Assembly: GCA_963785305.1 (NCBI GenBank)
Contig: CAWAUV010000002.1
Span: forward strand, 160,001 to 224,000
Source of the DNA: an uncultured Planctomycetaceae bacterium
Lineage (GTDB): Bacteria > Planctomycetota > Planctomycetia > Pirellulales > PALSA-1355
Direction: 5' to 3'
DNA: 64,000 nucleotides
The notes under the pieces were generated by a model. The model was not told the origin of the DNA, ran no database searches, and saw only the letters and a program-made list of their open reading frames with translations. The translations under genes were made by a program, and so were the position numbers. Below are positions 26 through 45,735 of this stretch, piece after piece (the first letter of the stretch is position 1; each line of letters begins with the position of its first letter).

Positions 26-100
26 GGTATCTGAGCGGAGTTGAACCGCCACCTTCTGGTTCACAGCCAGACGTGCAGAAACCGCTACACCACAGACACC
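26..100 (-). tRNA. tRNA-His(GTG), array member
   Basis: Anticodon loop CTGTGAA; G-1:C73 present. Confidence 0.9.
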
Positions 101-113
101 ATATAGTTGTCAG

Positions 114-186
114 CGCCCCGACCAGGAGTCGAACCCGGAATCTCTCGTTAGAAGCGAGATGTGATGATCCATTTCACCATCGAGGC
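114..186 (-). tRNA. tRNA-Arg(TCT)
   Basis: Anticodon loop CTTCTAA, T-loop TTCGACT. Confidence 0.9.
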
Positions 187-191
187 CCAAG

Positions 192-279
192 CGGAAGGCA
201 TGGGATTTGAACCCACATGACCCTTGCGGGTCGCACGGTTTAGCAAACCGGCCCGACCAGCCGTATTCGGCTACCTTCC
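192..279 (-). tRNA. tRNA-Ser(GCT)
   Basis: Loop TTGCTAA, long variable arm, G73. Confidence 0.9.
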
Positions 280-289
280 AAGTTGTCAG

Positions 290-360
290 TGGACCCACCG
301 AGAATCGAACTCGGATCTCCGCCACGCCAGGGCGGTGTCGTCCCGTTGGACCATGAGCCC
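290..360 (-). tRNA. tRNA-Ala(GGC)
   Basis: Loop CTGGCGT, G3:U70, A73. Confidence 0.9.
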
Positions 361-371
361 GTCGTTGTCAG

Positions 372-444
372 TGGACCGAATGGGAATCGAACCCATCGCA
401 CCGATCTTGCAAGGATCAGTCGCCCCCGTGGAACATGCCGGCCC
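372..444 (-). tRNA. tRNA-Ala(TGC)
   Basis: Loop CTTGCAA, G3:U70. Confidence 0.9.
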
Positions 445-454
445 GTACATCGAG

Positions 455-526
455 AGGTCCGTCCGGGAATCGAACCCGGCCTTCCTCCTTACCGAGGAGG
501 CGTGCGGCCAATAGCACTTACAGACC
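455..526 (-). tRNA. tRNA-Thr(GGT), C33 variant
   Basis: Stem CCTCC/GGAGG, loop TCGGTAA. Confidence 0.85.
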
Positions 527-530
527 AGAG

Positions 531-603
531 TGATCCCGGATGGACTCGAACCACCGATTTCCTGGATGTCGACCAGGCGTCTTGACCGCTGGACCACGGG
601 ATC
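531..603 (-). tRNA. tRNA-Val(GAC), C33 variant
   Basis: Loop TCGACAT, A73. Confidence 0.85.
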
Positions 604-608
604 GTGAG

Positions 609-685
609 TAACCGAGGTGGGCGTCGAACCCACAAAATCACGAGGCTCTCGACCTCGCCGCTTTGCCTAGTTTGCGTACCCGGCC
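609..685 (-). tRNA. tRNA-Leu(GAG), no variable stem, C33
   Basis: Loop TCGAGAG, A73, about 7-nt variable region. Confidence 0.8.
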
Positions 686-705
686 GTGAATATCGTCCTT
701 GCAAA

Positions 706-774
706 TTGCAGGTCCGGGTGTCGCACCCGGCGGTCCGGGCTTATGAGGCCCAGCTGAGCACTGGCTCACCTGCG
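706..774 (-). tRNA. tRNA-Met(CAT), initiator-like with reduced D-arm
   Basis: Loop CTCATAA, C1:A72 mismatch, T-loop TGCGACA, 69 nt. Confidence 0.75.
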
Positions 775-813
775 TCATGTCGGTCGGACGCGGTGCCCGC
801 CGACATAGTTCAG

Positions 814-897
814 TGACCAAGGGGAGAGTCGAACTCCCATGCCATTGATGGCACGACGTTCTGAGCGTCGCGTGTCTGCCAGTTCCACCACTTGGTC
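814..897 (-). tRNA. tRNA-Leu(CAG)
   Basis: Loop CTCAGAA, variable stem present. Confidence 0.9.
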
Positions 898-909
898 AAT
901 GTGATCGAG

Positions 910-982
910 TGACCCGTGCGGGAATCGAACCCGCCCTTCCAGCTTGAGAGGCTGGCGTCCTGAACCGATAGACAAACGGGCC
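910..982 (-). tRNA. tRNA-Glu(CTC)
   Basis: Loop CTCTCAA. Confidence 0.9.
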
Positions 983-988
983 GCTCAG

Positions 989-1070
989 TGCGCCGGGCAG
1001 GAGTTGAACCTGCAATGCCCGAAGGCGGGTGGGTTACAGCCACTTGGGCACGCCAATGCCCAGCCGACGC
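989..1070 (-). tRNA. tRNA-Tyr(GTA)
   Basis: Loop CTGTAAC, variable arm. Confidence 0.9.
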
Positions 1071-1078
1071 GTTTCGAG

Positions 1079-1157
1079 TGGCACGGGTCGGAGTCGAACC
1101 GACAGACAGATCACGAAGGTTTGAGCTTCGCCGCTTTACCGGTTTGCGTACCGTGCC
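1079..1157 (-). tRNA. tRNA-Leu(CAA), no variable stem
   Basis: Loop CTCAAAC, A73. Confidence 0.85.
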
Positions 1158-1165
1158 ATCACAAG

Positions 1166-1240
1166 CGTCCCCGGCGGGATTTGAACCCGCGATCTCCACC
1201 TTGACAGGGTGGCGAGCACTCCAGGCTGCTCCACGAGGAC
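1166..1240 (-). tRNA. tRNA-Asp(GTC)
   Basis: Loop CTGTCAA, G73. Confidence 0.9.
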
Positions 1241-1254
1241 AGATATATATTGAG

Positions 1255-1328
1255 TAGCTCAGGTGGGACTCGAACCCACAGCATCCCTGGTTCTAAGCCA
1301 AGGTGGTCTGCCAATTGCCTACCGAGCC
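1255..1328 (-). tRNA. tRNA-Leu(TAG), no variable stem
   Basis: Loop CTTAGAA, 74 nt. Confidence 0.85.
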
Positions 1329-1347
1329 ATGTCGCTGTCCATCGCAG

Positions 1348-1420
1348 TGCCCAGGGCAGGAGTCGAACCTGCAAACACTCGGGTTTAAGCCGAACCGCTC
1401 TGCCGTTGGCGTACCTGGGC
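1348..1420 (-). tRNA. tRNA-Leu(TAA), no variable stem
   Basis: Loop CTTAAAC, 73 nt. Confidence 0.85.
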
Positions 1421-1424
1421 GCAG

Positions 1425-1497
1425 TAGTCCCGGGTGGACTCGAACCACCGGTCGGCGCTTTGTAGGAGCGCTGCCTTTGCCGCTAGGCGACGGGACC
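1425..1497 (-). tRNA. tRNA-Val(TAC), C33 variant
   Basis: Loop CCTACAA. Confidence 0.85.
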
Positions 1498-1511
1498 GCG
1501 TATGCGTGAAG

Positions 1512-1582
1512 TGGACTCACTGGGATTCGCACCCAGATTTTCGGCTTGCGGAGCCGGCGTCTTCCTGTTGGACGATGAGCCC
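1512..1582 (-). tRNA. tRNA-Ala(CGC), C33 variant
   Basis: Loop TCCGCAA, G3:U70, T-loop TGCGAAT. Confidence 0.85.
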
Positions 1583-1596
1583 GAATGGATCGAAAG

Positions 1597-1682
1597 CGGA
1601 AGCGGTGAGACTCGAACTCACAAGCGGCCAAGTGCCGCCACCTGTTTTCGAGACAGGCTCCTCATCCGGCCGGATCACTTCC
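1597..1682 (-). tRNA. tRNA-Ser(CGA)
   Basis: Loop CTCGAAA, variable arm, G73. Confidence 0.9.
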
Positions 1683-1703
1683 GTAATTCAGCACTGCAAA
1701 AAG

Positions 1704-1778
1704 TTCCGGGGGTTGGAATCGAACCAACGACCTCCTGGTTCAGAGCCAGGCGTCACTACCAACAGCAACTACCCCGGA
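1704..1778 (-). tRNA. tRNA-Gln(CTG)
   Basis: Loop CTCTGAA, U1-A72. Confidence 0.9.
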
Positions 1779-1816
1779 TCGCGTTGTCTCGGCTGACACT
1801 CGCGCGAGTGCCTGAG

Positions 1817-1887
1817 TTCGGGGAGAAGGAATTGAACCTCCACCACCTGGTTCAAAGCCAGGCAGCCTACCGTTAGCCGATCCCCGA
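1817..1887 (-). tRNA. tRNA-Gln(TTG)
   Basis: Loop CTTTGAA, U1-A72. Confidence 0.9.
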
Positions 1888-1902
1888 TCGCGTTCGTGCG
1901 AA

Positions 1903-1974
1903 AGTGCCCTGTGGGAGTTGAACCCACCTCGCCAGCTTGGAAGGCTGGCACCTTTGCCGCTCGGCCAAGGGCAC
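1903..1974 (-). tRNA. tRNA-Gly(TCC)
   Basis: Loop CTTCCAA, U73. Confidence 0.9.
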
Positions 1975-1979
1975 ATGAG

Positions 1980-2063
1980 CGGAGGGAGAGGGAGTCGAAC
2001 CCCCAAGGCTTGTCGCTCGACTGTTTTCAAGACAGCTGCCATCGCCAGTCGGCTTGTCCCTCC
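1980..2063 (-). tRNA. tRNA-Ser(TGA)
   Basis: Loop CTTGAAA, variable arm, G73. Confidence 0.9.
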
Positions 2064-2071
2064 ACGCGAAG

Positions 2072-2143
2072 CTGCGGCGGCAGGAATCGAACCTGCAATC
2101 GTCTCCTTAACAGGGAGCTGCCTTACCGTTTGGCCACACCGCA
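2072..2143 (-). tRNA. tRNA-Asn(GTT)
   Basis: Loop CTGTTAA, U1-A72, G73. Confidence 0.9.
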
Positions 2144-2152
2144 ATGAATCAG

Positions 2153-2226
2153 TCAGGGCGGCTGGATTTGAACCAGCGCTCTCCTGCTCCCGAGGCAGGC
2201 GGAATTCCAGACTTTCCCACACCCTG
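2153..2226 (-). tRNA. tRNA-Pro(CGG)
   Basis: Loop CTCGGGA, C1-G72, A73. Confidence 0.9.
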
Positions 2227-2241
2227 ATGTCTTCAATTAAA

Positions 2242-2312
2242 AGCGCCCAGCGGGAGTCGAACCCGCACTTCCGCCATGGCAAGGCAGCAGGCTACCGCTA
2301 CATCATGGGCGC
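2242..2312 (-). tRNA. tRNA-Gly(GCC)
   Basis: Loop TTGCCAT, U73. Confidence 0.9.
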
Positions 2313-2326
2313 AAAGAATCGGACCA

Positions 2327-2340
2327 AATTGTCAAAGATC
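2327..2340 (-). promoter_or_regulatory. boxA-like antitermination element inside the tRNA array
   Basis: Sense GATCTTTGACAATT in a spacer; resembles rrn boxA (GCTCTTTAACA family). Confidence 0.6.
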
Positions 2341-2344
2341 GCAG

Positions 2345-2416
2345 AGCACCGGGTGGGACTCGAACCCACGTCGCCGCATTACGGGTGCGGGGTCCTCGCC
2401 GCTGGACGACCAGTGC
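2345..2416 (-). tRNA. tRNA-Thr(CGT), C33 variant
   Basis: Loop CCCGTAA. Confidence 0.85.
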
Positions 2417-2427
2417 CTAAGTGTCAG

Positions 2428-2500
2428 TGGGATCAGAGGGGCTCGAACCCTCACCGACCTGGGTAAGAACCAGGCATGCTGCCGCTAACACCTTGATCCC
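2428..2500 (-). tRNA. tRNA-Lys(CTT)
   Basis: Loop TTCTTAC. Confidence 0.9.
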
Positions 2501-2533
2501 GTCGTTCGTTTTGCTGTCGTTCTGTGCGCAAAC

Positions 2534-2605
2534 TCGGCGCGGAGGGAGTCGAACCCTCGTCTGATCCTTATAAGAGACCTGCTCTGACCGTTGAGCTACG
2601 CGCCG
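2534..2605 (-). tRNA. tRNA-Ile(TAT)
   Basis: CGGCGCG/CGCGCCG acceptor stem, GCTC/GAGC D-stem, loop CTTATAA, A73. Confidence 0.85.
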
Positions 2606-2639
2606 GCTAGGGCGATCGGTTGATCGCCGCTTCGACGAG

Positions 2640-2711
2640 TAGGGCCGGAGGGATTTGAACCCACACCTATCGGATTAAAAGTCCGGAGTGCTGCCGTTAC
2701 ACCACGACCCC
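2640..2711 (-). tRNA. tRNA-Lys(TTT)
   Basis: Loop CTTTTAA. Confidence 0.9.
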
Positions 2712-2800
2712 AAAGGTTGGTCGGGCGTATCCGTTTCGTGGGCTTGGTCTCGAACATCGTCTTGCGCGACATGTTGTGCCTCCTGCGTTCGCGTGCTCAG

Positions 2801-2871
2801 TAGTCCGGGATGGAGTTGAACCATCGCCGACGACATATCAGATCGCCATGCTGCCGTTACACCACCGGACA
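2801..2871 (-). tRNA. tRNA-Ile(GAT)
   Basis: Loop CTGATAT; first acceptor pair mismatched. Confidence 0.8.
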
Positions 2872-2889
2872 ACAACTCCGTCGCTTCAG

Positions 2890-2962
2890 TCGGGATGGTC
2901 GGACTCGAACCGACACGCTCGTGCTCCCAAGGCACGTGGGCTTGCCGTTACCCTACATCCCG
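2890..2962 (-). tRNA. tRNA-Pro(TGG)
   Basis: Loop CTTGGGA, C1-G72. Confidence 0.9.
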
Positions 2963-2986
2963 TTTGCCGTCACCATCTTCTGTCAG

Positions 2987-3059
2987 TAGCTCGTATGGGA
3001 GTCGAACCCATCTCTCCGGATTGAAAGCCCGGTATCCTGCACCGATAGACGAACGAGCC
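2987..3059 (-). tRNA. tRNA-Glu(TTC)
   Basis: Loop CTTTCAA. Confidence 0.9.
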
Positions 3060-3105
3060 GCGTGTTTTACCGTCCGCGCGCACCCTGGCGCGCACGTCGA
3101 GCGAG

Positions 3106-3177
3106 TGGGTCGGGAGGCGCTCGAATCCTCGTCTGCGGCTTTTCAGGCCGCCGCTAAACCGTCTCAGCTACCGGCCC
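3106..3177 (-). tRNA. tRNA-Phe(GAA), first gene of the array
   Basis: Loop CTGAAAA. Confidence 0.9.
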
Positions 3178-3255: not shown

Positions 3256-3508
3256 TTTTGGGCTTTCAGACCGTTTTCGTCCGAGTGTCACAAGCGCAGG
3301 ATTGGGGGCGAGGTTATTCACGCCTGACCGCGTGCCTTGGGCGCACATGGTATCGCGCAGCGTGGAATAACGCTCCGCCATGCGTTCTCGAATCGAACTC
3401 GGTCGTAAAAACATCATCGAAGTCACGTTTCCCGCAAAATCCGAGGGCCCGTCAAAAGGCCCGTCAAAAAGCACTCGCGAATATTCGCATCGCGAGGGCA
3501 TACCCACT

Positions 3509-5792: not shown

Positions 5793-5876
5793 TGCGGGAA
5801 ACAGGACTTGAACCTGCACGAGGTTACCCCCACCAGGCCCTCAACCTGGCGCGTCTGCCAATTCCGCCATTCCCGC
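5793..5876 (-). tRNA. tRNA-Leu(GAG), canonical copy
   Basis: Loop TTGAGGG, variable arm, canonical D-loop. Confidence 0.95.
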
Positions 5877-42851: not shown

Positions 42852-43061
42852 TCGCCCGCGGATTTCGCGGCTCCAACCCGCGGGTTGCGAAGCGAGCTCC
42901 TTCTCCGGCGCGTCATTCATGCTAATGCGGCAGCTCGCCGCTCGTCGCGATTTTGCTTGACGGGGCAATCGCGAACTCTTACGAATGCAATCATTGCTCG
43001 CCGTTCGCGCGGGCGCCGCATCGCCGGTCTCTGGAAGTCATTTCACCGGGCTCCGCTGTAC

Positions 43062-44718
43062 TGTCTTGGTTCACCGTGAACTGGAATTGGCGGTGCCGGG
43101 GATTAGCGAGTTGTGAAGGGCATCCTGCCGGGCATTTCGCGGCATCGTGCCGCGAAGGTTTAACGCATTCGCGCCAATCCCGAAGGATTGGCGAGCGGAC
43201 GGCGCCGACGATTGCCGGTCGCCGCCCTCTCTTCGGTCTTGGCCGCTGGGTCGCGCTCGGGTTGCCCCTCGGCAGAGCCCTATCCTCCGCCCAGTTCAAT
43301 CATCAATTTAGCGCCGCCGATCGTTTCAGGCAACCTTGGGCGCGGCGTTGGCGGCGGCACGCGCCGCGCGTCGTCGCTCGCGGGCCGCGTCCAGCTTGGC
43401 GTCACGCTCGTCGAATATCCGCTGCTCGATACCGTTCAACTTGTCGGCCGGCGCGACGTAGCCGATCGCGCTATGTAAACGTTCCTGATTGTAGTGCGCG
43501 ACGAACTTCGTGATCCGGCTTCGCGCGTCCTCGACATCCGCGGGACAAGCCGGGCGAATGCACTCGGCCTTCAGGCTCTTGTGCCAGCGTTCCAACTTGC
43601 CGTTGCTTTGGGGATAAAACGGACTCGTTCGCACATGCGTCATGCCGGCCAGGCGAATGAACTCCTTGAAATCCCGCGCGATGAACTGCGGGCCGTTGTC
43701 GCTGATGATCCGCGGCTTTTCGTCCGGAAACTTTTCTCGCGCGCGTTGAATCACCGTTTCCACTTCGAACTCCTTCATGCTCTCGCGCAGCTCCCAATGC
43801 ACGATGTAGCGGCTGTAGCCGTCCAGAATCGTGCGGAGAAAGTAGAACGTTCCCGCCAGATTGATGTACGAAATATCGACATGCCAGTGGTCGTGCGGCC
43901 GCGGCGGCTGCACGAAACCGGTTCCTTTCTTGGACGGCGAGAACTTGCGTTGGTCGAGCCGTCCGCCTTGTTTCAATACCCGATACACGCTGCTGGGACT
44001 GACCGCCACCACGTCGAGAGTCGAGCATCATGAACGCCAAGCGGCGGTAGCCGTTCAGCGGATGGCTGTCGTGGTAGGCGAGGATGGCTTGTTTCTCCCA
44101 GTCCTCGAGTTCTCGATTCCCCGGGCCACCAGTCGCGCGGGACCTTGCCGTTGTGTTCGTTGGCTTTGCCGTAGCGGTCCTTCCACTGGTGGAACTTGCT
44201 CGGCGCCAATTCCAGCCAGCCCAGCAGCCGCTGGGCCGGCAGCTCGGCACGCTCGGTCCAACGCCCGATGTAATCGACGATGGCGTCGCGCGTGTCGTGG
44301 GGAACCCAAGCTCCCTTCAGAGTTCCCCAAGCTCTTTTTTTGCGCGGACATTCTCCTCCATCAGTTCGGCGATGACTTCGTTCTTGGTGACCAGCTTCGA
44401 TTCGAGCTGGGCGATCTTCTGGTCCTTGGCCGCTTCCAGCCGCGGCGGCCGCCCGCCCGCCCGCCCACCGCCCGACCGCCTTCTCGGCCTGATCGAGCAC
44501 CTGCTTGACCCAGAGATGGATCAGGCTCGGCTGGACCTTGAGTTCATCGGCCAAATCCGACACCGGCGTTTTGCCGCTCAAATGCCGCCGCACGACCTGG
44601 GCCTTCTGCTCGGCGGAAAAATGCCGCCGCGTTCGCAATTCGCTCATGGAAACGTCCTCCCTCGGGATTTATGCTAATCCCAACGGCCAAACTTTCCAGT
44701 TCCGGGAGGTTCAGGACA
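43062..44718 (-). mobile_element. IS3-family insertion sequence (about 1.66 kb)
   Basis: Imperfect terminal IRs TGTC..GAACTGGAA..GGGATTAGC; orfA HTH; A7G slip site; DDE orfB; no target duplication seen. Confidence 0.88.
43326..44647 (-). CDS. IS3 transposase orfAB (programmed -1 site near 44334-44341 plus additional breaks)
   Basis: RHFSAEQKA; WHVDISY, ISDNGPQF, PQSNGKLER, YNQERLHSAIGY. Confidence 0.85.
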
Positions 44719-44825
44719 GAATGGGCTCTAAAGTGAGCCAACGTAAACTACGAATGACGCAGCGCATATTATTACAACTAGCAAAAAGCGCTCGCGACTG
44801 ATAACGTTTAGCGCATAAGAAACAC

Positions 44826-45185
44826 TTAATGCAAGTATTCATCGATTACAAATAACGCCTCGGGAAAGACCTGCTTTGCAAGCACAAGTTTCTCGCGCGG
44901 TATTTTCCCCCCAGGCCCTAGTTCGATACGCCCAACGGCATTATCGCCGAGAACACGACGAGTAATCCGGACGGACGGAATGTAACTCTGCTGAAATATG
45001 TTCCAACGCTCAGGATTATAATCATAAATGCGGGCATCTAAAGAAACAAGATAGACTCGCATTTCCTTGCGTTGCCGCACAATCGACGTTTCCCAGCCGA
45101 GAAACGCGGTAAAGGGAACAGACAAAACAAGGACCGTCCGCAAGCAATATCTGGGACATGCCTCAAATAGACGTTTCAATAGCAT
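44826..45185 (-). CDS. AT-rich membrane-anchored hypothetical protein
   Basis: RYCLRTVLVL + TM ... RRVLGDNAV ... FPEA; lower GC than flanks. Confidence 0.55.
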   Translation of the reverse strand: MLLKRLFEACPRYCLRTVLVLSVPFTAFLGWETSIVRQRKEMRVYLVSLDARIYDYNPERWNIFQQSYIPSVRITRRVLGDNAVGRIELGPGGKIPREKLVLAKQVFPEALFVIDEYLH

Positions 45186-45267
45186 AACAACATACCAGCG
45201 AAAAAATCGAACTCACGATACCACCGCAAATCGTCAGGGGATTTTCTCAACTTTCTTATGGAATACA

Positions 45268-45340
45268 ATGGAAATGTCCTCCCTCGGGATTTATGCTAAT
45301 CCCAACGGCCAAACTTTCCAGTTCCGGGAGGTTCAGGACA
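45268..45340 (-). repeat. Second copy of the IS left end
   Basis: Near-identical direct repeat of 44646-44718 (one mismatch seen). Confidence 0.92.
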
Positions 45341-45661
45341 GCCTGGCTGTCAACTGACGAGTTGCCAGCTACATTTGAGCATGACCGCTTATCACCGACA
45401 AATCGAGTCGTAGGAACGTGGGGTGCCCAACTGCAAGAAATGCCTGACCAAGAATGCGACCGAAATCGACCGGCAGACGAGCCAACCGCTCTGCGGGGGC
45501 TGTTATGGCGTCGTCACCGCCATGCGGAGCGCCGATCCGATTAAGTTTTACGCCTACCTGGGCGGCAGTGCCGCCAAAGCGCCGAGTGGCCCTGGTGGCG
45601 TCCGGCGTGCATCGGCGTGCATATTTTGATAGGGGTTGATCGTAAACCCTTACCAAATAAG

Positions 45662-45735
<74 letters not shown>

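Follow-up and report, generated by a model that had tools for sequence, protein, structure and literature searches.

An uncatalogued structured RNA module carried in the ends of an IS3-family element and of unrelated insertion sequences

The window analyzed here is the whole stretch of 64,000 nucleotides (nt) at positions 160,001 to 224,000 of contig CAWAUV010000002.1 (assembly GCA_963785305.1), from an uncultured Planctomycetaceae bacterium of the order Pirellulales. Its minus strand carries an insertion sequence (IS) of the IS3 family in which the transposase genes orfA and orfB are followed by a long noncoding end: the orfB stop codon lies at 43326-43328, and 264 nt remain to the end of the IS. 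An RNA module of approximately 160-190 nt sits between this stop codon and the right inverted repeat. We hold with high confidence that this region is a real, conserved structured RNA module, and it belongs to a structured RNA family that had not been catalogued before and has no match in Rfam 15, one that is genuinely new and travels in mobile elements. A sequence-only reading had proposed a noncoding RNA here; that an RNA is encoded was borne out, whereas part of the proposed fold, its tie to IS3 and its tie to the insertion flanks were not.

The fold runs, in order, through P1, an internal loop formed by AGGAUA and GAGCG, a GGG/CCC helix, a CNN/A loop, a 4-base-pair hairpin, the P2 rod and a GCGNWAAA tail, and the 3-4 nt after this tail pair with the hairpin loop in a pseudoknot (Table 1). 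Homologues were gathered by a fixed core pattern, leaving out L026 and L043, which had two mismatches and no complementarity in the hairpin, the duplicates L036 and L050 of the window genome, and sequences too near a contig end. In the 5' domain, tested on an ungapped alignment of 99 distinct sequences, 86.2% of the cells were paired compared with 72.4 ± 0.6% after shuffling (0 of 500 shuffles as high), 15 of 17 pairs changed on both sides, and slid controls were only 34-45% paired. Over the full length (66 sequences, plain MAFFT alignment), 84.4% against 67.4% were paired and 24 of 29 pairs changed on both sides, among them every one of the 10 basal pairs of P2. The hairpin showed the same behavior within the window genome, where one copy alters both strands (UGCC/GGCA to CGCG/CGCG). 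For P2, a measure based on a spanning pair was dropped: 50 of 54 sequences have such a pair, but so do 500 of 1,080 dinucleotide shuffles, and because it had no discriminating power it was replaced by duplex energies of arm against arm. When the 5' arm was paired with the 3' arm of the same sequence, the median energy was -27.5 kcal/mol; shuffled arms gave -14.0 and the arms of other sequences -17.0, and 38 of the 54 sequences did better than all 100 of their arm shuffles; for the window copy the values were -29.9 kcal/mol with its own 3' arm and -13.7 with shuffled arms. Approximately 25 nucleotides of the pseudoknotted core are near-invariant, the invariance of the tail being partly artefactual because of how the tail was located.

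The pseudoknot, formed between the hairpin loop (43267-43270) and the strand at 43155-43158, had been overlooked in the sequence-only reading. Loop and tail covary over eight loop types, and 58 of 67 sequences pair at three or more of the four positions. The combinations include GGGA with UCC(C/A), GAGG with CCU(U/C) (the window copy having GAGG with CCUU), GGAG with CUC(N), GAGA with UCUC, GGCA with UGCC, GGCG with CGC and GGGG with CCC. In total, 225 of 268 positions were paired, compared with 186 ± 3.5 when tails were swapped among sequences (0 of 1,000 as high), and in the 66-sequence alignment 88.5% were paired, with GC/AU swaps of 47/14, 46/14 and 33/31. In the window copy, the pseudoknot strand shares 2 nt with the following hairpin, P3. 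In many homologues, for example L025, L030, L034, L041, L045, L058, L063 and L082, the hairpin after the tail has a sequence, (C)CAGGGGGUYUGGGGGAC-AGMG-GUCCCCCAG, that is near-identical across distant phyla and is missing from the window copy; it holds a direct repeat of its G-run, which could allow alternative pairings.

Table 1. Coordinates of the IS3-family element and of the parts of its RNA module in the window
Feature	Position	Strand	Basis or remark
IS3-family element, host of the RNA module	43062..44718	(-)	identical ends in 7 genome copies
Left inverted repeat (IRL)	begins TGTCCTG at 44718	(-)	7 copies
orfA/orfB transposase genes, broken in the window copy	43326..44647	(-)	sequence and Pfam domains
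A7 slippery run (A7G)	44335-44341	(-)	read from sequence; orfB carries on in the -1 frame
-10-like hexamer TAAATT	43305..43310	(-)	position where homologues favor TAnnnT
Entire structured RNA module, P1 to P3	43136..43294	(-)	covariance model R1 matches 43241-43298; covariation; ends predicted
P1 5' strand CUGGGCGG	43287..43294	(-)	partner 43246-43253; 7/8 pairs change on both sides
AGGAUA internal-loop strand, T-loop-like	43281..43286	(-)	A13, G14, G15, A18 invariant in 99 sequences
GGG of the GGG/CCC helix	43278-43280	(-)	partner CCC 43259-43261
Hairpin UGCC-GAGG-GGCA, loop 43267-43270	43263..43274	(-)	99.2% paired; 3/4 pairs covary, e.g. U-A 33 vs C-G 31
A, then CCC (partner GGG), then invariant GAGCG strand	43254..43262	(-)	alignment and covariation
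P1 3' strand CGACCCAG	43246..43253	(-)	covariation
P2 rod 5' arm GGCCAAGACCGAAG	43231..43244	(-)	partner 43172-43185
Variable inner hairpin of P2 (second GCAA-capped stem of the sequence-only reading)	43197..43227	(-)	comparison of copies and homologues
Linker 43186-43196 and P2 3' arm 43172-43185	43172..43196	(-)	own copies, duplex energies, covariation
Conserved single-stranded tail GAAUGCGUUAAA, consensus AAWGCGNWAAA	43159..43170	(-)	homologue alignment
Pseudoknot 3' strand CCUU, partner of loop GAGG	43155..43158	(-)	loop-tail covariation
P3 hairpin UUCGCGGCA-CGA-UGCCGCGAA	43136..43156	(-)	hairpin of differing sequence at the same position in many homologues
Right inverted repeat (IRR)	43062..43110 (inner edge ~43110)	(-)	terminates AAGACA at 43062

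The strand that carries the function could be read from the pattern of mismatches. G-U pairs outnumbered A-C mismatches by 109 to 36, and the sense strand was the more stable one in 48 of 54 homologues; therefore, the functional molecule is the RNA of the sense strand, which is the transposase strand in the window. Together with the covariation, these counts upheld the earlier proposal of a structured RNA encoded within the IS on that strand. The excess fold energy of the 271-nt stretch taken alone is poor evidence, with a z value of -2.18 against 200 shuffles on the transposase strand (6 of 200 as good) and -1.34 on the opposite strand. Within the window genome, the RNA core is conserved and the adjoining spacers are not: nucleotide diversity (pi) over the seven copies was 0.039 in the 5' domain, 0.033 in the tail plus P3 and 0.027 in the coding sequence, compared with 0.095 in the P2 rod, 0.215 in the spacer between stop codon and P1, and 0.154 in that between P3 and the right repeat.

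The inverted repeats listed in the sequence-only reading are all present where it placed them, and covariation supported P1, the hairpin, P2 and the pseudoknot; two of the five hairpins proposed there failed. The hairpin TTCGCGGCA/TGCCGCGAA (43136-43156) keeps its position in many homologues and corresponds to P3, and the second GCAA-capped stem is the apex of the variable hairpin inside P2. The proposed CGCCAATCC-TTCG-GGATTGGCG hairpin (43172-43193) occurs in only four of the seven genome copies, and its 3' half is the 3' strand of P2, whose true partner is GGCCAAGACCGAAG. In the other three copies the 5' arm is swapped for a longer, different segment and the 3' arm is unchanged; in the window copy, the linker can alternatively pair locally with the P2 3' arm, which yields the cUUCGg hairpin. 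GGCGGAG/CTCTGCC and GGG-GCAA-CCC were no better paired in the 99 homologues than after shuffling (57.4% vs 58.8%; 498 of 500 shuffles do as well), and P1, the GGG/CCC helix and the hairpin UGCC-GAGG-GGCA are the conserved pairings in their place. A match at 9 of 11 positions between a segment of the region and the flank had been listed as a weak hint; it gained no support. The flanks differ in all seven copies, the matched segment belongs to the conserved core, and there was no sign of a guide-like connection to the insertion flanks.

Searches of catalogues returned no family to which the module could be assigned. An Rfam scan of the whole window at gathering score found tRNAs only, and a scan of 43000-43400 at E ≤ 10 returned sraL alone, at 10 bits against a threshold of 39, which is noise. 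Among 20 homologous loci, the gathering scan found two tRNAs and nothing else, and the known self-cleaving ribozyme classes had no Rfam 15 match at the region or at these loci. No description of such an RNA was found in the literature search, although papers outside the searched collection could still hold one.

The distribution of the module extends far beyond the window genome. A DNA search within the family identified a 37-nt core match in another genus whose outer stem was different yet complementary. When the core pattern (at most two mismatches) was run on 401 genomes sampled across the phylum, 22 matched and the reversed pattern, used as a control, matched none; the matches were often multi-copy and at contig ends. 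The exact pattern, run on one genome per species, gave at least 120 stretches, with approximately 14 phylum-level labels among the matches listed. By record title, 80 of these at least 120 loci comprised Planctomycetota (25), Acidobacteriota (23), Desulfobacterota or 'Deltaproteobacteria' (10), Chloroflexota (5), Bacillota (5), Verrucomicrobiota (3) and one locus each from Armatimonadota, Sumerlaeota, Cloacimonadota, Hydrogenedentota, Myxococcota, Acidimicrobiaceae, Bifidobacteriaceae, Enterobacteriaceae and an uncultured Pseudomonadota, the last few of these single-locus labels being metagenome bins identified by title alone. Matches in viral contigs were rare (six), and blastn with an IS21-borne copy found no match among the PLSDB plasmids. 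In the window genome, the R1 model matched the seven IS copies only. Six identical IS21-borne copies were present in Desulfosediminicola flagellatus IMCC35005, and three IS3-derived sites, one of them without a transposase gene, in Singulisphaera acidiphila DSM 18658; both are cultured carriers with complete genomes, in which the module is directly testable. At L177 of S. acidiphila (G433:C1:8706841-8706899), the RNA and the right repeat occur with no transposase gene upstream, and L013 (G030) is an internal-deletion derivative of approximately 325 nt of a related IS3, without the RNA; both look like derivatives of the miniature inverted-repeat transposable element type. No 'empty' close relative of the IS21 carrier was found: all six close copies bear the RNA, and the remaining IstB homologues are 35-40% identical. 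Among 251 genomes of the phylum, IS3 relatives occurred in three other genomes, too few for a comparison of filled and empty elements.

The module is cargo inside the terminal repeats of unrelated IS families. Inverted-repeat pairs enclose the RNA and a transposase together in elements of the IS256 (two loci), IS21 (two), IS30, IS3 and rve types (one each). Pfam searches of 194 neighboring open reading frames (ORFs) identified IS3, IS21 (IstA/IstB), IS256 (Transposase_mut), IS110, ISL3 and DDE_Tnp_1_4 proteins, along with IS30/IS481-like rve proteins, phage-type integrases and group II intron reverse transcriptases, and no TnpB or IscB. The module occurs with at least eight recombinase families, and its flanks are unrelated right up to the putative promoter. 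The earlier proposal of an IS3-encoded RNA holds for the window, where the host is an IS3 element, and not for the module as such, which also occurs with IS21, IS256, IS30, IS481-like, IS110, ISL3 and tyrosine-recombinase carriers.

The orientation of the RNA relative to the recombinase gene is free. In tblastn searches of 26 neighboring proteins against 101 distinct loci, many of them cut by contig ends, a recombinase homologue was present in the available flank of 57, eight of which had IS110-type carriers. The RNA lay 3' of the gene in 50 of the 57, on the same strand in 23 and convergent in 27; five loci were divergent, and the RNA was 5' on the same strand in two. In same-strand loci the putative promoter overlaps the ORF end. 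In convergent loci the 3' end of the gene lies 89-176 nt from the core start and the RNA itself measures 125-150 nt; in two IS256 elements the gap between RNA and gene is only a few nt. Six IS3 elements of Acidobacteriota (L057, L065, L075, L038, L102 and L112) carry a complete same-strand module beside the right repeat and, right after the transposase stop, the reverse complement of the 3' part of the module (P2 3' arm, tail and G5/C5 hairpin), so that these elements seem either to have gained the module on two occasions or to have inverted part of it. At L109, a metagenome-assembled genome of Bryobacterales, identical tandem modules (3001-3037 and 3315-3351) lie 314 nt apart beside an IS110-family gene.

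The carrier in the window shows the traits of the IS3 family: orfA contains HTH_Tnp_1 (2e-10), orfB contains rve (1.8e-18) and rve_3 (2.4e-16), and, as read from the sequence, an A-rich slippery run links the two through a -1 frameshift. Besides seven full copies of 92-100% identity, the genome holds a 5' fragment and a solo left end of 74 nt. The terminal inverted repeats are imperfect, all seven copies have the ends TGTCCTG.../...AAGACA, and no direct repeats that would match the 3-4-bp target duplications of the family were seen beside any of them. None of the seven has an intact transposase frame, each bearing a 16-nt frame-shifting insertion; in the window copy and L002-L007 this insertion (CCCGGGGAATCGAGAA, 44110-44125, minus strand) splits orfB between ..PRDWW and LEDWEKQ.., at a site across which orfB homologues elsewhere are contiguous. 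Either the family spread after the break by mobilization in trans, or an unusual recoding is involved. The window copy has two frame breaks beyond this common insertion. In two genomes from the same family, related IS3 elements are without the RNA stretch, and their orfB reaches to approximately 55 nt from the right repeat.

Beyond the left end of the IS, the interval 44719-45341 contains a 547-nt AT-rich segment with a 119-amino-acid ORF (44826-45185) and, at 45268-45341, the solo left-end copy (74 nt, 99% identical); the IS has no flanking target duplication, and this arrangement resembles insertion into, or rearrangement of, an IS copy. Another IS copy lies approximately 200 nt downstream of a 23S-5S rRNA operon (G000:C8:250229-253156; L216, L003). 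Elsewhere in the window, 26 tRNA genes are packed into approximately 3.2 kb (26-3177, minus strand; Rfam), and two further tRNAs lie at 5793-5876 and 45662-45734; a tRNA array of this size is unusual, and the region may be mobile or phage-derived.

A positional signal upstream of P1 in the 99 homologues points to a promoter. TAnnnT is favored at -20 to -15 (T 52, A 67, T 66) and T at -44 to -42 (39, 53 and 47 of 99), and at -41 G leads the other bases by a narrow margin (30 of 99), a signal of the form TTG...TAnnnT; the spacing of 18 nt would suit a sigma-70 promoter with its start at P1. A strict scan of 42950-43450 for promoters and terminators found nothing.

How, then, might the module act? 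Our preferred reading, to which we give about even chances, is that of an uncatalogued structured cargo RNA in mobile-element ends that acts in trans through a core docked to a cellular partner. The RNA would be transcribed from its own sigma-70-type promoter with the start at P1, as the homologue signal suggests. It would act as a free RNA in trans, because neither orientation nor recombinase type matters. The conserved pseudoknot and T-loop-like core would dock a conserved cellular partner, either protein or RNA, with tRNA as one candidate; the RNA would probably not work by base-pairing with the IS or its flanks, and docking would somehow benefit the persistence or spread of the carrier element.

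The tRNA candidate derives from the AGGAUA strand, which equals the T-loop 1 sequence of the 23S L1 stalk in the window genome (GCAGGAUAGGUGGGAGG). In the published account, L1-stalk T-loop 1 follows the AG..A pattern, an additional U being inserted between positions 4 and 5, and makes up half of the double T-loop module to which the elbow of tRNA docks in the ribosome, in RNase P and in T-box leaders (PMC3664808). The pattern A-G-x-x-(U)-A, as defined there, is present in the RNA module as AGGAUA, with A13, G14 and A18 invariant in the 99 sequences. The opposite strand reads (C/U)GAGC, and the C that stands at its closing position is invariant; the tail reads WGCGN with a variable fifth position. 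AGGAUA is shared with the L1-stalk double T-loop, from which the module differs in strand topology; tRNA docking is a candidate function, to be taken as a lead and not as membership of that class.

Several observations weigh against our preferred reading. The invariance of the core is partly by construction, because a fixed core pattern served to gather the homologues. The window copy has TAAATT at the expected place, yet it fails a strict sigma-70 scan, so that its own transcription is an inference, and in this copy the RNA may simply be the 3' untranslated region of the transposase mRNA. In AT-rich hosts, a U-rich run follows the inner P2 hairpin; it is terminator-like and would end the RNA before the tail. 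In convergent loci, the 3' end of the RNA meets the transposase stop codon within approximately 0-30 nt, which also fits a cis antisense role. As for the T-loop lead, no second T-loop of the UG..A type was found in the GAGCG strand or the tail, and the R1 model matched the 23S L1 stalk only at E values of 2.2 to 7.9, which are not significant.

The tight packing of the module against the transposase stop codon would also suit a cis-acting, riboswitch-like leader, in which a ligand or factor is recognized by the core, which then controls whether transcription proceeds out of the module, tuning transposition to the state of the cell; the gated transcript would run antisense to the transposase in convergent loci and, in same-strand loci, would cross the right repeat or enter the transposase after circle formation. 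P3 directly follows the pseudoknot strand and, with its 2-nt overlap in the window copy, could serve as a switch. A junction of highly conserved nucleotides alongside a peripheral rod that varies, as seen here, is typical of aptamers. However, the effects of read-through would be opposite in the two orientations, which are about equally common (23 vs 27). P3 is absent from many homologues (Chloroflexota, Bacillota; AAACUCA-type tails), no conserved expression platform or terminator was found, either in the homologues or in the scan of the window copy, and no Rfam aptamer suggests a ligand. With a position 5' of a same-strand gene in just two of 57 loci, the placement is not that of a riboswitch, and we regard such a leader as possible but unlikely.

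A small RNA with a putative promoter of its own inside an IS, convergent with the transposase in 27 loci, also recalls antisense RNAs of the IS10 RNA-OUT type. Classical IS antisense RNAs each belong to a single IS and overlap its transposase mRNA at the 5' end, whereas the module lies on the 3' side, is common to unrelated families and is on the same strand as the gene in 23 loci.

A ribozyme or an RNA-level selfish module, that is, a self-cleaving or other catalytic RNA that processes IS-end transcripts or moves between elements by itself, would explain the presence of the same module in unrelated IS families. The compact pseudoknotted core with its near-invariant nucleotides and rod of variable length would fit such an RNA, as would the spread over at least eight recombinase families and across phyla with unrelated flanks up to the promoter, the second, partial copy in opposite orientation in one IS3 lineage and the tandem duplicate at L109. 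We consider this improbable, as no known ribozyme class matched in Rfam 15, the 5' edge of P1 has no conserved nucleotide, and the module has neither terminal repeats nor target duplications of its own.

The position of the variable P2 segment between conserved parts could suggest a guide-type RNA, analogous to bridge or omega RNAs, whose variable segment would pair with IS ends or the insertion target. Like the bridge (seek) RNAs of IS110/IS1111, the module is a structured noncoding RNA of approximately 150-200 nt in a noncoding IS end, and some modules adjoin IS110-family genes. Bridge RNAs are tied to DEDD recombinases and have loops complementary to target and donor ends. The module, in contrast, occurs with DDE, DEDD and tyrosine recombinases, its partner in the window is a DDE IS3 transposase, and its variable segments pair with each other. 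Like the omega RNAs of TnpB/IscB (IS200/IS605, IS607), it is an IS-borne scaffold RNA with a pseudoknot at the 3' end of the element; unlike them, it has no TnpB or IscB neighbor, ends 75-100 nt inside the IS and not at its boundary, is free in orientation, and is not matched by the omega-RNA families of Rfam. The window IS shows a 7-nt identity between the P2 5' arm and the tip of the right inverted repeat; as a guide candidate, this was rejected since other IS3 lineages do not show it consistently. The RNA had no complement of at least 10 nt in the IS sense strand, a length that 57 of 200 shuffled RNAs reach by chance, and complementarity to the rest of the IS or to the flanks was not above chance. 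The flanks differ among the seven copies and the RNA does not. A guide function is therefore highly improbable, and the analogy with the functional RNAs of IS110 or IS200/605 drawn in the sequence-only reading does not hold, because there is no guide-like link to the flanks and the module is not IS3-specific.

A non-functional remnant, either a decayed C-terminal coding extension (the decayed ORF that the sequence-only reading had allowed for), as the longer orfB without the module in the two related IS3-bearing genomes might suggest, or a DNA palindrome serving as a transposase-binding or recombination site, is effectively refuted by the covariation data, that is, by compensatory changes in four helices and the pseudoknot, besides the excess of G-U over A-C and the conservation of the core across phyla, and its probability is negligible.

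Among known RNAs, orphan structured RNAs such as HEARO (before it was recognized as an omega RNA), ROOL and GOLLD are also comparable; these are widespread, supported by covariation and found with mobile DNA. The module resembles them as a widespread, covarying RNA associated with mobile DNA, and it differs in being much smaller, in residing inside minimal ISs and in matching none of their Rfam families.

A strongly conserved, complex fold in many unrelated elements and phyla implies a function that is useful to mobile DNA generally and is mediated by a universal component of the cell. In the usual view, insertion sequences carry nothing beyond what movement requires, and, to our knowledge, the known IS RNAs are antisense regulators, omega RNAs and bridge RNAs, each tied to one transposase type. 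In its boldest and rather improbable form, our proposal would be that a single pseudoknotted RNA is a promiscuous cargo gene, passed between at least eight unrelated recombinase families of the DDE, DEDD and tyrosine types in more than 10 phyla, and that its L1-stalk-like T-loop core docks tRNA or another universal component of translation. If this were true, it would be the first RNA-only accessory module of insertion sequences, and mobile elements, whatever their way of moving, would sense or alter the state of their host with respect to translation or starvation. The partner or activity of the module, once found, could reveal a new interplay between host and transposon or a new class of functional RNA, and would also provide an annotation marker for otherwise unexplained noncoding IS ends.

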